Shown one piece after another: positions 1 through 4,023 of a stretch of 4,369 nucleotides of DNA. The translations under genes were made by a program, and so were the position numbers. Location: the IMG/VR virus record IMGVR_UViG_2703719355_000024. The stretch is one strand, 5' to 3'. The notes under the pieces are model-generated. The model saw nothing but the letters and a program-made list of their open reading frames with translations, was not told where the DNA came from and did not search any database. Numbering within the stretch: the first letter of the stretch is position 1; each line of letters opens with the position of its first letter. This DNA comes from a virus. Taxonomy: Duplodnaviria; Heunggongvirae; Uroviricota; Caudoviricetes.

Positions 1-354
1 TTGTCTGGCGCTTTTCCAACCGCTGGCGCTATCGCAGGGTTCTCTGGAGGAGGTGTTATTGGAGCAATAGTTGGTGGCGCTGCAGGTGGAGCAATTGATG
101 CGATAGCAAAAGGATCGATAGCGAAATTATCCGCAACCAGAAGTGGTCGTTACGCTATTGAAAAGGCTGTTCAAGAGGCAACAAAGGCAGTTAAGGTTGG
201 GGCAAGTGATGGCGCATTAGCGGCGGCAGAACGCAGATTTATGGCAAATAAGGCCGCCGTAAAAGCAATACGCGAGGCACTAGGAAACGAAGAGTTCCAG
301 CGTTTAGCAAGGGCTGGAATTGTGGCATCGCTAAGCGGAATGGCACAGGAGTAA
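1..354 (+). CDS. 3' portion of a CDS that probably starts upstream of the window (5'-partial); hypothetical protein with a Gly/Ala-rich hydrophobic segment followed by an Ala/Lys/Glu-rich helical tail; by position possibly the last virion/ejection-protein gene of a P22-like late operon
   Basis: Open frame from base 1 to TAA at 352-354. Position 1 is TTG with no upstream context, so it is most likely an internal codon. Residues 5-35 (AFPTAGAIAGFSGGGVIGAIVGGAAGGAIDAIA) form a glycine-zipper-like hydrophobic stretch. The ejection-protein assignment is inference from synteny only. Confidence 0.5.
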   Translation: MSGAFPTAGAIAGFSGGGVIGAIVGGAAGGAIDAIAKGSIAKLSATRSGRYAIEKAVQEATKAVKVGASDGALAAAERRFMANKAAVKAIREALGNEEFQRLARAGIVASLSGMAQE

Positions 355-684
355 TTAGTCATCCATGGATGGATTGAGCTTATCTCGTGTTGATGTGGCA
401 ATTTTACCAACATTTTTCAACCAAGATTTTAAGAAGGATATGTCGTCCTTAATATCATGAATATCCTCATTCTTTATACGATCAACCTTATCCTCTAGGC
501 TCTCTATAGAACGCTCAATGCTAGACAGAGAGACTTTTAAGTCTCCTTGCTCACGTTCCAGTGAGGATTTGAGAGCACAATATTCGTTTTCTAGAATTCC
601 TATTTTTTTTGTTAGAGAGTGCATTCGATACTCATACACCAAACCAGAAACGACTAATGCAGCCAACAGAAACCATTCAAGCAC
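355..684 (-). CDS. hypothetical small membrane-anchored coiled-coil protein (109 aa, GTG start)
   Basis: Minus-strand ORF with GTG start at 684-682, preceded by a strong Shine-Dalgarno (minus strand AAGGAGG, 5-nt spacer). N-terminal hydrophobic segment LEWFLLAALVVSGLVY, then a charged heptad-like region (LENEYCALKSSLEREQGDLKVSLSSIERSIESLEDKVDRIKNE). Stop TAA is the complement of 355-357. Confidence 0.55.
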   Translation of the reverse strand: MLEWFLLAALVVSGLVYEYRMHSLTKKIGILENEYCALKSSLEREQGDLKVSLSSIERSIESLEDKVDRIKNEDIHDIKDDISFLKSWLKNVGKIATSTRDKLNPSMDD

Positions 685-825
685 ACCAACCTCCTTAGTT
701 TTGCGCAGGATACCAGATGATAATGTATTGGTGGAGTGGTGTGTGAAAACGTGTCAACGACAAACCATCCACAACTTGGACGAATGATTTAGCAAAAAGT
801 GCTATTTTTGGTGTTTGGTGTCATA

Positions 826-1058: not shown

Positions 1059-1502
1059 ATGCTTACTTGTTTTGATGTCGCCGACTACTTCCTGTCGCGG
1101 TGTGACGAGGATAGCGGTGACACAATCTCTAATTTAAAATTACAAAAGCTTGTTTACTATGCTCAGGGTTTTTCATTGGCGTTGCTTGGCGAGCCTCTTT
1201 TTCAGAATAAGATGGAAGCTTGGATGCATGGCCCTGTTGTCCCTGAGCTTTATCGCCGTTATAAACAATATGGTAATGGCGCTATCCCTTCTCCAGAGTC
1301 TTTTGATGCTGAAAAATTCAGCGAAGAACAGTTAGAGCTATTAGAAGAAGTCTGGGATGTTTTTGGGCAATTTTCTGCCTGGAAACTGAGGAACATGACA
1401 CACGAAGAGTCACCATGGAGATCAAACTATATTGAGGGTGTTGGTGGTTCTGAAATTAGCTCTAAGGAGATGGCAGAGTACTTTGCAACTCGGATTAACT
1501 AA
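1059..1502 (+). CDS. Panacea-domain protein (DUF4065 / SocA-like antitoxin domain, GepA-type phage-associated protein); putative antitoxin or sensor component
   Basis: ATG at 1059 with GGAGG 7 nt upstream; the GTG at 1053 given in the ORF track sits on the SD and is less likely. The segment LKLQKLVYYAQGFSLALLGEPLFQNKMEAWMHGPVVPELYRRYKQYG matches the DUF4065/Panacea core pattern as I recall it. Stop TAA at 1500-1502. Confidence 0.75.
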   Translation: MLTCFDVADYFLSRCDEDSGDTISNLKLQKLVYYAQGFSLALLGEPLFQNKMEAWMHGPVVPELYRRYKQYGNGAIPSPESFDAEKFSEEQLELLEEVWDVFGQFSAWKLRNMTHEESPWRSNYIEGVGGSEISSKEMAEYFATRIN

Positions 1503-1506
1503 CGAG

Positions 1507-1926
1507 ATGGCAAGAAAATCTAAAAGGATTATCCCCCCTGCTGAATCTACAGGTAAGTTAAAGTTAGGGCCGCAGTCAGGGGGGAATTCAGATCAAAAGA
1601 AACCGAAATTTTCATTCTGTTACATCCAAAGCTCTCACTGCATAACGAAATGCCAAAAAGATGAGAAAGCTGGCTTAGCTGATAAATTATACAGATTAAG
1701 TCAACTAACATGGGCAGAGATTAAGCAGCAAGGTAGGCATAAGCTTGGATTTGAGAAGATTGCAAGGGGTGCCATTAAAGCAGGTATCCCCAGTCATATA
1801 ACGGAAGACGTAGATCATTTCTTGGCTTTTAGATTTGATGATTTGAAAGCCATGGTTGGTTATCGTCTTGGATCGACATTTTTTGTTATATGGCTTGATA
1901 GAGAGTTCAACCTATACAAGCACTAA
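1507..1926 (+). CDS. hypothetical 139-aa protein, candidate toxin/effector partner of the Panacea-domain protein
   Basis: ATG at 1507 lies 4 nt after the upstream stop, in the same orientation, with no strong SD of its own, suggesting translational coupling. The ORF-track start at 1432 is a TTG inside the upstream gene. Basic low-complexity N-terminus (MARKSKRIIPPAESTGKLKLGPQSGGNSDQKKPK), a Cys/His cluster (FSFCYIQSSHCITKC), and a beta-rich C-terminus. No family recognised. An intrinsic terminator follows immediately. Confidence 0.7.
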   Translation: MARKSKRIIPPAESTGKLKLGPQSGGNSDQKKPKFSFCYIQSSHCITKCQKDEKAGLADKLYRLSQLTWAEIKQQGRHKLGFEKIARGAIKAGIPSHITEDVDHFLAFRFDDLKAMVGYRLGSTFFVIWLDREFNLYKH

Positions 1927-1953
1927 TAAAACCCACCGTCAGGTGGGTTTTTT
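1927..1953. terminator. bidirectional rho-independent terminator shared by the convergent Panacea operon and the repressor gene
   Basis: AAAA (1927-1930), stem ACCCACC (1931-1937), loop GTCA (1938-1941), stem GGTGGGT (1942-1948), then a T-run from 1949. The flanking A-tract and T-tract allow function in both directions. The repressor stop codon (complement of 1939-1941) lies in the loop. Confidence 0.8.
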
Positions 1954-2748
1954 GTTGTCTCTGCTATCGAGAAGGAAGTTCAATTTTTCCTCTATTTCTT
2001 TAAGCTTGAGATAAAGTAATTCTTTCTCGGTTCTGGCATTTTCAGCTATAAAATCCTCTGCTTCATCCAACGTATTTTCGCTATCTCTTATCGAGTGCAG
2101 CGGGGTTTTTAACAAATCAATTTGTGCATGAATAGCTACAGCAATGATTTCCATATCATCACTGATTTCCAACATCGGGTACGCTGGATTAAGTGGTTTT
2201 AAGTAAAAATGCCCCTGATCTCTTATTAGTTGCTTGAAGGTGGTTTCAAATCCATTGCAACACAGCACGAAGTCTCCTGGTTTGGCCTGAATATCCGGAT
2301 CAAAGCAGACAGTGTAGCCATCCGGGAAGCTAATTCCAGAAGATGATGTCATTGAATGCCCTGTAACCACTAACGCAAATGCATTATTCCCGGCACATAA
2401 CGGGGCAGGGATAAAGTCTATAGGAGTAATGTCGCTTGGAAATTTTCCTCCTTTAGGATAGGAATTTGATAGGTGCGAGAATACGGGGATCTCTCTGACT
2501 GTTACCGTTCTCTGTATTGAGCTAACATCAGGCCCCTCACCAACACCGATAGCTAACCATTCTGTTGTTGTCCCTAAAGTAGCAGCCAGATTTCGTAACA
2601 CAGCGTCCCTTGGCTTGGAATCTCCTGCTTCATAGGCTGCTATTTGCCTTCTTACGATGCCAACCTTATCAGCTAACTGACCTTGAGTCAGCCCCATGGC
2701 AGCGCGAGCGATAGATATACGCTTAGGAAATGAATCGTCAAATTTCAT
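1939..2748 (-). CDS. lambda CI / P22 C2-type repressor: N-terminal HTH (XRE/Cro-C1 type) plus C-terminal S24 (LexA-like) peptidase domain, with an additional ~55-residue charged helical C-terminal extension
   Basis: Start taken as ATG at 2748-2746 with SD AAGGA 6 nt upstream; the ORF-track start at 2805 has no SD and would overlap the candidate divergent promoter. HTH: ISIARAAMGLTQGQLADKVGIVRRQIAAYEAG. S24 domain: GHSM (Ser nucleophile) and TFKQLIRDQGHFYLKPLNPAYPMLE, very close to lambda CI [26 protein letters not shown] and P22 C2 [24 protein letters not shown] as recalled from memory. Confidence 0.85.
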   Translation of the reverse strand: MKFDDSFPKRISIARAAMGLTQGQLADKVGIVRRQIAAYEAGDSKPRDAVLRNLAATLGTTTEWLAIGVGEGPDVSSIQRTVTVREIPVFSHLSNSYPKGGKFPSDITPIDFIPAPLCAGNNAFALVVTGHSMTSSSGISFPDGYTVCFDPDIQAKPGDFVLCCNGFETTFKQLIRDQGHFYLKPLNPAYPMLEISDDMEIIAVAIHAQIDLLKTPLHSIRDSENTLDEAEDFIAENARTEKELLYLKLKEIEEKLNFLLDSRDNKKPT

Positions 2749-2770
2749 ATGTGATCCTTTAAAGTTCACA

Positions 2771-2848: not shown

Positions 2849-3022
2849 ATGGAACAGAAGAAAAAAGATATCAAGCCTATCTCCTACCGCCCAAGTGCTG
2901 AAGTGCGTGAGTTTTTGGAAGGTAACGCAGCTAAAAGCTACCGCTCAATTCAGGGAATGCTTGATTTCTTTATGGCAAGAGTGATGGAGATGGAGAGGAA
3001 AGGTGAAATTGTCATCCATTAA
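2849..3022 (+). CDS. arc: Arc-like ribbon-helix-helix transcriptional repressor (57 aa)
   Basis: Not in the supplied ORF track (below its length cutoff). ATG at 2849 with GAGG at 2839-2842; stop TAA at 3020-3022. Protein [57 protein letters not shown] aligns by eye with P22 Arc as recalled: a basic beta-strand (FNLRWPREV vs ISYRPSAEV), the RS motif, and RVME in helix B. Sits directly upstream of the antirepressor-like gene, as in P22 immI. Confidence 0.7.
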
Positions 3023-3093
3023 AAATGTTGAAGCCCCAACTGCTGCAACAGTCAGGGCTTCGGTATCAACAAAACTTACGAGGTATTATTGAT

Positions 3094-4023
3094 ATGTCAA
3101 GCTTAGCAAAGTCAACTGTAAATTGCACTAACAGCATCACCATTTCAGACGTCAAGATTCATATGGATTCAGAGGGGCGTTACTCGCTTAATGACCTGCA
3201 CAAGGCATCAGGTAAAGAGCGTCGTCATGAGCCTGCTGCGTGGCTGCGACTAGAACAAACCAATGAGTTAGTTCAAGAAATTCTAAATACACAGATGTGT
3301 GTATTTAAAAATGGCGATAACTTTAATTCTTCAGAATCGCAGATTAAGAAGCCAATGGACTCTAAGAAGGGTCGCTACGGAGGCACCTACGTGTGCAAGG
3401 AGCTTGTTTACTCCTACGCCATGTGGATTAGCGCAGCCTTTGCGCTGAAGGTTATCCGTGCATATGACGCAATGGTTACTACCACACAAGAGAGGAAGGC
3501 TATTGGCGGTAAAACTTCAGTAGCTGAACGCACACCGCTACGCGATGCAGTAAACATGCTGGTAGGAAAGAAAGGGCTTCGCTATGACGATGCATACAAT
3601 ATGGTTCATCAGCGTTTTGGTATTGACAGCATTGATGAACTTTCAATTGAACAAATCCCGCTGGCCGTAGAGTACATCCACAGGGTAGTGCTTGAAGGTG
3701 AGTTCATCGGCAAACAAGAGAAGAAAACCAACGAGCTTTCTGCAAAAGAAGCAAACAGCCTTGTATGGTTATGGGATTATGCCAACCGCTCACAGGCATT
3801 ATTCCGCGAATTGTATCCGGCGCTAAAACAAATTCAATCGAACTATTCCTGCAGATGCTACGACTACGGTCATGAGTTCTCGTATGTTATTGGAATGGCG
3901 AGAGACGTTTTAATAAACCACACACGAGATGTTGATATCAATGAGCCAGACGGACCAACGAATCTTTCCGCATGGATGAGACTTAAGAATAAAGAATTAC
4001 CTCCTTCAGTACATAACTACTGA
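3094..4023 (+). CDS. KilA-N domain protein, putative antirepressor (functional analogue of P22 Ant)
   Basis: ATG at 3094 with GAGG at 3080-3083. The in-frame ATG at 3025, 2 nt after the arc-like stop, has no SD but cannot be excluded. N-terminal region has KilA-N hallmarks ([53 protein letters not shown]). Followed by a strong intrinsic terminator. Position between the arc-like gene and the tailspike matches P22 ant. Confidence 0.75.

Follow-up and report, generated by a model that had tools for sequence, protein, structure and literature searches.

What kind of protein is encoded by the small gene that touches the end of gene 16 in a P22-like phage, and what might it do in the cells that carry it? 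We considered this question for a stretch of 4,369 nucleotides (nt) from IMG/VR virus record IMGVR_UViG_2703719355_000024 (Caudoviricetes), hereafter called the window, which is the gene 16-to-tailspike region ('immunity I / ant moron') of a P22-like phage (Lederbergvirus). An original prediction, made from the letters alone, had described at positions 355-684 a small membrane-anchored coiled-coil protein in which no family was recognized. The gene proves to be a homologue of hkcB from phage HK620, it sits in the slot where P22 carries the superinfection-exclusion gene sieA, and it is paired with one type of C-terminus of gp16, the gene 16 product. These observations point, tentatively, to a role in excluding related phages. 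The features on which the argument depends are the following.

1-354, plus strand: 3' end of gene 16, encoding the ejection (DNA transfer) protein gp16 (phrog_770 match and HK620 annotation)
355-684, minus strand: hkcB homologue encoding 109 amino acids (aa) (list of open reading frames (ORFs), identity to HK620 HkcB, phrog_5962)
682-719, minus strand: conserved mosaic junction, CTGGTATCCTGnnCAAAACTAAGGAGGTTGGTGTG (six-phage alignment, census and P22 comparison; in P22, positions 2829-2866 of locus L249)
685-696, minus strand: Shine-Dalgarno (SD) sequence AAGGAGG (696-690) and 5-nt spacer, reading AAGGAGG-TTGGT-GTG
720-747, minus strand: sigma-70-like promoter candidate, TTCACA-16-CATTAT (consensus scan, 9 of 12 matches)

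Identity and Coding Potential of the Gene

The ORF occupies positions 355-684 of the minus strand and begins with a GTG codon at position 684, preceded at a distance of 5 nt by AAGGAGG, in keeping with the GTG start and very strong SD sequence that the original prediction had noted. BLASTP aligned the product with HkcB of HK620 (AAK28903.1) over all 109 aa, with 107 of the 109 residues identical (98%), and phrog_5962 was matched at full length (E 3.4e-61), residues 2-109 aligning with the same positions of the profile. Identity is 50% both to gp14 of epsilon34 and to a CUS-3 gene annotated hkcB. The protein is therefore HkcB, a member of the HkcB / PHROG 5962 family that was named in the HK620 genome and hence is not new, and the earlier failure to recognize a family no longer stands. 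HK620 HkcB, epsilon34 gp14, the CUS-3 protein and PHROG 5962 are all annotated as function unknown. Only two substitutions separate the window's protein from that of HK620, and the position and orientation of the gene beside gene 16 are the same, whereas the upstream neighbor is a Panacea operon in the window and hkcC in HK620. A literature search for hkcB turned up only the epsilon34 genome paper, which lists the gene as having unknown function (PMC2629481), and the SieA study of Leavitt et al. (2024) does not mention hkcB (PMC10883804).

The family is small. Clustering at 90% identity leaves 26 groups of its sequences in a set of 5.8 billion proteins. A profile search of 1.84 billion representative proteins returned 12 with E<1e-3, of which the significant ones belong to the family and about half are unrelated long coiled coils. 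Its members are confined to P22-like (Lederbergvirus) phages and prophages of enterobacteria. Among 5426 complete E. coli genomes, 117 carry hkcB, always on the chromosome and always annotated 'hypothetical protein', and a scan of genome contigs with one genome per species gave no relative. Searches of Pfam, NCBIfam, PADLOC and PDB sequences yielded only generic coiled-coil noise (GCN4 adaptors, keratin, SMC), and family members matched FtsL, AmaP, XhlA (E 0.044) and P2 Rz1/LysC (E 0.039) at noise level. We also considered that HkcB might mimic part of a neighboring ejection protein, but a profile search against all ORFs in five loci found only HkcB itself.

The minus-strand frame is the sole frame open in all eight homologues examined. 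Among six diverged gene copies compared, the proportion of synonymous differences (pS) between family members is 0.47-0.83 and thus saturated, while the proportion of nonsynonymous differences (pN) stays at 0.13-0.54 across codons 2-65 and at 0.07-0.29 across codons 66-109. Saturated pS combined with low pN indicates that conservation acts at the level of the protein and does not derive from recent DNA sharing. Judged by this pattern, HkcB is under selection, with the strongest constraint in the C-terminal 44 aa. The plus-strand ORF at 518-787, which had been put forward as the frame that might be expressed instead, has 2-5 stop codons in seven of the eight homologues, although it stays open across the short gene in L247, a distant P22-like prophage. 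It has no Pfam or PHROG match, and in the six-phage alignment it crosses the mosaic junction into the variable module beyond.

Architecture of HkcB

The two structural claims of the original prediction, a single N-terminal hydrophobic helix and a long charged heptad-like region, were both borne out. An N-terminal transmembrane (TM) helix spans residues ~2-19 and a heptad coiled coil residues ~24-96, and the C-terminal part carries the conserved motif R69..ED.H..D.I..L..W.KNVG.IATSTRDKLNPSMDD. The hydrophobic segment has a Kyte-Doolittle mean of 2.16 over residues 2-16, its run ends at about residue 19, and an equivalent segment is retained in all eight diverse family members, with means of 2.2-3.2. 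Beyond residue 19 the mean stays below 0.8 and the chain reads as a single amphipathic helix, so that there is only one hydrophobic segment. In the best 28-residue heptad window, 87.5% of a/d positions are L, I, V, M or F, and the family alignment keeps these positions hydrophobic from ~24 to 96, with L/I/V residues spaced by 3-4. An AlphaFold2 monomer, computed from a shallow alignment of eight sequences, is one continuous helix from 2 to 103 with a mean pLDDT of 82.6. Invariant or near-invariant residues are R69, E73, D74, H76, D80, I82, W88, K90-N91-V92 and I95-A-T-S98, and a C-terminal 'LKxWxxNVG' motif is conserved in the family. Because in all eight members K/R residues are absent ahead of the helix but number 2-3 within the 15 residues that come next, the positive-inside rule predicts an N-out/C-in topology, in which a cytoplasmic stalk would be tethered to the inner membrane. 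The soluble part is mildly acidic, with a net charge of -2 to -4.

The most remote members, P0030 (104 aa) and P0032 (96 aa), still have the helix at the N-terminus, the heptad pattern and 'L(K/T)xW(V/I)xNVG'. In two metagenomic proteins, P0022 and P0023 (locus L248), the C-terminal 44 aa of HkcB are fused to an unrelated N-terminus that has no TM segment, and the genes still abut a gp16 gene. Such proteins may be chimeras produced by recombination, or else they may show that the C-terminal segment forms a module of its own.

A Shared Start Junction and Its Slot Genes

When six phages were aligned, a junction of ~38 bp (34-38 bp) emerged as an invariant island with unrelated sequence on either side, and the SD sequence and spacer within it do not vary. 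In P22, where the annotation places sieA after gene 16 on the opposite strand and before gene 9, the last 38 nt through the sieA start codon (…CATGGTATCCTGCACAAAACTAAGGAGGTTGGTGTG) essentially match those through the hkcB start. The claim that the gene sits where P22 carries its exclusion gene is thus true in a literal sense, as hkcB and sieA occupy the same genomic slot and start at the same junction.

A scan of IMG/VR with a 21-nt piece of the junction gave at least 120 viral loci, in which we translated the slot proteins from the common GTG. The 21-nt pattern includes the SD sequence, so the loci of this census carry an SD by construction. Among the matches listed, to which all census counts below refer, at least 12 unrelated slot families start at the shared GTG, and all but one are predicted to be membrane or exported proteins by virtue of a signal peptide, lipobox or TM helices. 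The families are as follows.

HkcB: at least 21 loci
129-aa signal-peptide protein like Sf6 gp38: at least 16 loci
Second 109-aa TM and coiled-coil protein, unrelated to HkcB: at least 14 loci
62-aa two-TM protein: at least 12 loci
SieA (164 aa, with FGRYPGEAKGFNKEF): at least 12 loci
75-aa two-TM protein: at least 9 loci
106-aa protein with N-terminal TM helix: at least 9 loci
140-aa soluble protein: at least 8 loci
116-aa multi-TM protein: at least 6 loci
99-aa signal-peptide protein: at least 5 loci
149-aa TM-anchored protein: at least 4 loci
68-aa signal-peptide protein: at least 2 loci
42-aa TM protein: at least 1 locus

Upstream of the junction we find modules of at least seven kinds. 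Almost every combination of module and slot gene occurs, and hkcB alone is found with at least five of the modules. The junction has the look of a recombination 'boundary sequence' and, at the same time, of an expression cassette that can be passed from gene to gene. By our reading it also contains an extended -10-like motif, TGnTATCCT, and in the HK620 and P22-type arrangements its complementary strand provides the ATG of the divergent gene hkcC. The promoter candidate at 720-747 lies ~35 nt upstream of the hkcB start, within a distance equivalent to the 85 bp upstream of the start codon that suffice for expression of sieA in P22 (PMC10883804).

When the slot proteins are clustered, HkcB and the SieA type remain apart, no BLASTP match at 1e-5 connecting them, and the SieA motif FxRYPxEAxxFNK is absent from the HkcB sequence. 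By sequence comparison, HkcB is not a SieA homologue, and the two share genomic position alone. Remote homology was also sought with other slot families and rejected, as hhalign gave a probability of 11% for the second 109-aa family and 4% for the 106-aa family. The second 109-aa family (MLEIVVLALGISCCVLYAGLAALKKQVKELD..., L139 and 13 other loci) adjoins P22-type gp16 tails, and its resemblance to HkcB may be one of convergent architecture.

The HkcB homologue in L247 (GCA_030005655.1, region 5713-6315) does not use the conserved junction. It has an SD sequence TAGGAGG and an ATG start. A gene for an Arc/Mnt-like repressor precedes it on the same strand with 36 nt between them, an arrangement that would be expected for a gene expressed from the prophage.

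Linkage to the gp16 C-terminal Tail

On its other side, hkcB meets gene 16 with nothing in between. The gene 16 stop codon (TAA, 352-354) and that of hkcB (355-357, TTA on the plus strand) are adjacent, with 0 nt separating them, and no terminator lies at this convergent boundary (352-357). Late-operon transcription toward the tailspike gene must consequently run antisense through hkcB. The gene 16 fragment in the window encodes a glycine-zipper hydrophobic segment (residues 1-36) and then a basic C-terminal module of 80 aa (window positions 109-351); the mosaic breakpoint in gp16 falls just past the hydrophobic segment. The last 80 aa of gp16 have a net charge of +5 to +8.

In all 44 of 44 hkcB loci, the hkcB stop codon directly adjoins that of a gene 16 encoding the HK620-type C-terminus (last ~80 aa). 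Clustering of the census loci by the last 80 aa of gp16 separates at least five clusters of unrelated tail types, and HkcB was found with the HK620-type tail in 19 of 19 cases and with the P22 type in 0 of 54. SieA shows the corresponding restriction to the P22-type tail (11 of 11), and most of the remaining slot families are likewise restricted to one tail cluster. The pairing extends to remote relatives. Next to P0030 and P0032 are gp16 genes that share 65% and 61% identity, respectively, with the window over the last 80 aa, and the remote homologues in L247 and L250 are convergent with gene 16 and abut it. The gp16 of P22 shows no detectable similarity to the last 80 aa encoded in the window.

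A Possible Role in Superinfection Exclusion

The biology of SieA gives this linkage a possible meaning. Changes that allow escape from SieA are G532W and P546S in gp16 (PMC10883804). In the 609-aa P22 protein these positions are 78 and 64 residues short of the C-terminal end, within the module that travels with the slot genes. Moreover, exclusion by SieA of types A and B is weak against HK620 and against P22 carrying the HK620 ejection proteins (PMC10883804), which leaves phages of the HK620 type as a gap that another excluder could fill. Since SieA acts on the very part of gp16 that is linked to the slot genes, and HkcB is linked to the alternative tail, an exclusion function is the reading we favor. 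Specifically, we suggest that HkcB may exclude superinfecting phages at the inner membrane as the counterpart of the HK620-type gp16 tail, and thus be a non-homologous analogue of SieA, while holding this reading with less than even confidence.

A mechanism of the following kind can be envisioned. Transcription of sieA is weak in lysogens (PMC10883804), and the prophage would similarly make small amounts of HkcB from a promoter of the gene's own. The protein would insert in the inner membrane with its N-terminus out and its C-terminus in, and would oligomerize through the coiled coil. When a related phage ejects its conduit proteins gp7, gp20 and gp16 into an HkcB-bearing cell, the acidic stalk and conserved C-terminal motif could engage the basic ~80-aa tail of HK620-type gp16 at the inner membrane, and complementary charges on the two partners, which are possible from their sequences, might assist this contact. 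Such engagement would block the assembly or opening of the DNA conduit, and the incoming genome would be kept from the cytoplasm.

Several observations weigh against this proposal. No homology ties HkcB to exclusion; the protein matches no defense family and itself has nothing in common with SieA. Of 80 contigs with an HK620-type gp16 tail, hkcB is present in 56, whereas in the other 24 the slot is empty or holds a different gene, so that HkcB is not required for gp16 of this type. Co-variation is not strict either, because HkcB of the window's type occurs with both subtypes of the tail (95-100% and 81-86%). The linkage could even be explained by adjacency alone, given that 0 nt separate the two genes and that the nearest conserved recombination joint is on the far side of hkcB. 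The PADLOC-DB defense families returned one DpdH fragment (E 0.002) in which no single stretch passed by itself, and which we regard as noise. The heptad signal is modest in the single sequence, as 77 of 2000 composition-preserving shuffles reach 87.5% (p ~0.04), the topology is predicted from the positive-inside rule alone, and the promoter candidate is a consensus match at background frequency (4 sites found versus 3.8 expected). Finally, in Gally, an HK620-related prophage of E. coli LF82 that may or may not carry hkcB, no gene but the repressor was expressed more than 5-fold above the prophage background, and the transcriptome lists no moron (PMC9928086).

Other explanations for these data must be considered. 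It is conceivable, if on balance unlikely, that hkcB, as a prophage moron, acts at the envelope in a way that does not involve DNA entry, for example as a sensor or effector of abortive infection, a modulator of membrane stress or division (FtsB/FtsL/YhcB-like) or a host-fitness factor. The slot does hold many unrelated small envelope proteins of unknown role, the combination of one TM helix with a coiled coil is not distinctive, FtsL, AmaP and XhlA models give weak coiled-coil-type matches to family members, and hkcB is present in the 117 E. coli genomes noted above. However, an envelope role of this kind does not account for the constant pairing with one gp16 tail type, which holds even at ~30% identity; the FtsL-like matches are all far below cut-offs, and the family, with 12 representatives among 1.84 billion, is confined to P22-like prophages. 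We consider it improbable that HkcB instead serves the phage's own cycle through gp16, either as a membrane-tethered 'immunity' protein or chaperone that shields the inner membrane of the producing cell or by tuning gp16. The tight and ancient adjacency to the gp16 C-terminal module and the complementary charges would suit such a role, as would the increase in P22 sieA transcription during induction (PMC10883804), from which it appears that slot genes are not strictly limited to lysogeny. Nevertheless, the 24 phage contigs that have the same tail and no hkcB show that the gene is dispensable for this gp16 type, and its position antisense to the late operon means that convergent transcription should oppose its expression at the time when gp16 is made.

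The remaining two explanations can largely be set aside. HkcB resembles spanins superficially, in that an inner-membrane anchor with a periplasmic coiled coil is the layout of Rz, and the noise-level matches to XhlA and P2 Rz1/LysC point the same way. Yet the locus lies outside the lysis cassette, on the opposite strand between gene 16 and the immI genes, no lipoprotein ORF is embedded in it or adjacent to it (the other sense frames carry 6-15 stops, with 10 and 13 for this gene), the N-terminus lacks the positive flank that an N-in/C-out topology would call for, and no Rz/Rz1 family was matched above threshold. A lysis-associated function is therefore very improbable, and this part of the original interpretation falls, while the architecture and the slot on which it also drew are upheld. 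There is scarcely any chance that the minus-strand ORF is spurious and that the real feature is the plus-strand ORF or a non-coding element. An 89-aa ORF does exist on the plus strand, with a promoter-like site at 569-597, but its frame is broken in seven of eight homologues where that of hkcB is open in all, and the substitution pattern fits purifying selection on the minus-strand protein. Even in combination, a spanin-like role and a spurious ORF would be a highly improbable outcome.

Implications for the Slot

We offer as a speculative extension, doubtful as a whole, that the slot is an arms-race locus, where each gp16 tail type has its own matched inner-membrane excluder and one conserved cassette of promoter, SD sequence and start codon serves as the recombination joint. 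SieA would then act on the P22 type and HkcB on the HK620 type, and the 10 or more further families would act on theirs. HkcB would in that event represent a structurally new kind of excluder, a tethered coiled coil that captures the basic gp16 tail at the cytoplasmic face, which we likewise regard as a long shot. Viewing the slot as an interchangeable envelope-protein cassette tied to gp16 tail types, with HkcB as a distinct excluder, may be new.

SieA is the sole characterized gene of the slot. Should the exclusion reading be correct, the DNA-conduit proteins of podoviruses and the exclusion proteins of prophages diversify as matched pairs, and HkcB, at 109 aa with one helix, would be a small and tractable probe for the inner-membrane step of P22-like genome delivery. 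The census also brings forward about 10 unstudied envelope proteins in the cassette as candidate phage-resistance determinants in E. coli and Salmonella, a point that bears on phage typing and on therapy with phages. Should HkcB have no exclusion function, the result amounts to a correctly delimited and already cataloged hypothetical gene.

The Surrounding Genes

The remaining genes of the window, and the RNA encoded among them, are listed below.

1059-1502, plus strand: SocA/Panacea gene (PF13274, E 1.8e-24)
1059-1926, plus strand: two-gene operon formed by the Panacea gene and, after it, a gene for a 139-aa partner (phrog_8366)
1939-2751, minus strand: repressor of 270 aa with helix-turn-helix (HTH) and peptidase S24 domains
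2849-3022: small Arc-like gene
3026-3092, minus strand: sar antisense RNA (RF00262, 62.3 bits, E 1.3e-11)
3094-4023: antirepressor Ant (KilA-N and P22_AR_C)
4124 onward: tailspike head-binding domain (PF09008, E 8.7e-40)

Pieces of the window were found by Megablast in HK620, epsilon34, Emek, phiv205-1 and other phages, and in every case the match was mosaic. The Panacea operon is transcribed divergently from hkcB, as had been described, and in Emek and phiv205-1 the same module stands beside unrelated slot genes, an outcome that free reassortment upstream of the junction would produce. As the Panacea module and hkcB each occur with other partners, HkcB is not part of the Panacea system, and a functional tie between them is unlikely; the original prediction had noted that the gene lies next to a candidate toxin-antitoxin or defense operon. 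Panacea is a SocA-like antitoxin domain, and the 139-aa partner gives a weak match to NsnC in PADLOC (E 5.9e-6). In phiv205-1, the first gene of the operon appears truncated (93 aa). Directly downstream of the operon is a strong hairpin followed by a run of T (AAAACCCACCGTCAGGTGGGTTTT, 1928-1951), a scan match on the plus strand only.

The intergenic region upstream of the Panacea gene had been called repeat-rich. This was an overstatement, since it holds only one imperfect 12-nt inverted repeat and one pair of 14-nt direct repeats, TGCAG(G/T)AAATGTGA, at 865-878 and 908-921 with a spacing of 43 bp. It is possible that the direct repeat is an operator of the Panacea operon.

Farther downstream, the sar RNA lies between the arc-like gene and ant, like its position in P22 immI. 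The small repressor gene mnt of P22 is replaced by the HTH and peptidase S24 repressor (LexA/CI-like, potentially self-cleaving), whose gene is divergent from the arc-like and ant genes. With this repressor in place of Mnt, expression of the antirepressor would fall under SOS-type control rather than control by Mnt.

Comparison with Known Systems

Proteins with an N-terminal TM helix followed by a coiled coil, in chains of ~100-150 aa, are found among the i-spanins of the Rz type and the division proteins of the FtsB/FtsL type. HkcB shares this layout, but the known examples are N-in/C-out with a positive N-terminal flank, whereas HkcB has no such flank and is predicted to be C-in.

HK97 gp15 and lactococcal Sie2009 are small prophage Sie (superinfection exclusion) proteins with one N-terminal membrane helix, encoded by morons among or near structural genes, and they block DNA entry. 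As an excluder, HkcB would resemble them, as it would SieA, in function. They are not known to be related to HkcB in sequence, and they belong to siphoviruses. DNA entry by siphoviruses depends on the tape measure, unlike the gp7/gp20/gp16 conduit.

SieA of P22 is a multi-pass protein of 164 aa with the cytoplasmic motif FxRYPxEAxxFNK, whereas HkcB has 109 aa, a single TM helix and a coiled coil; an inner-membrane location is established for the former and predicted for the latter. Exclusion has been demonstrated for SieA only, and HkcB is likened to it by its slot and its gp16 linkage. In these respects the two genes are alike, as they have the same slot, the same orientation and the same SD and GTG start junction, and each is associated with one type of gp16 tail.

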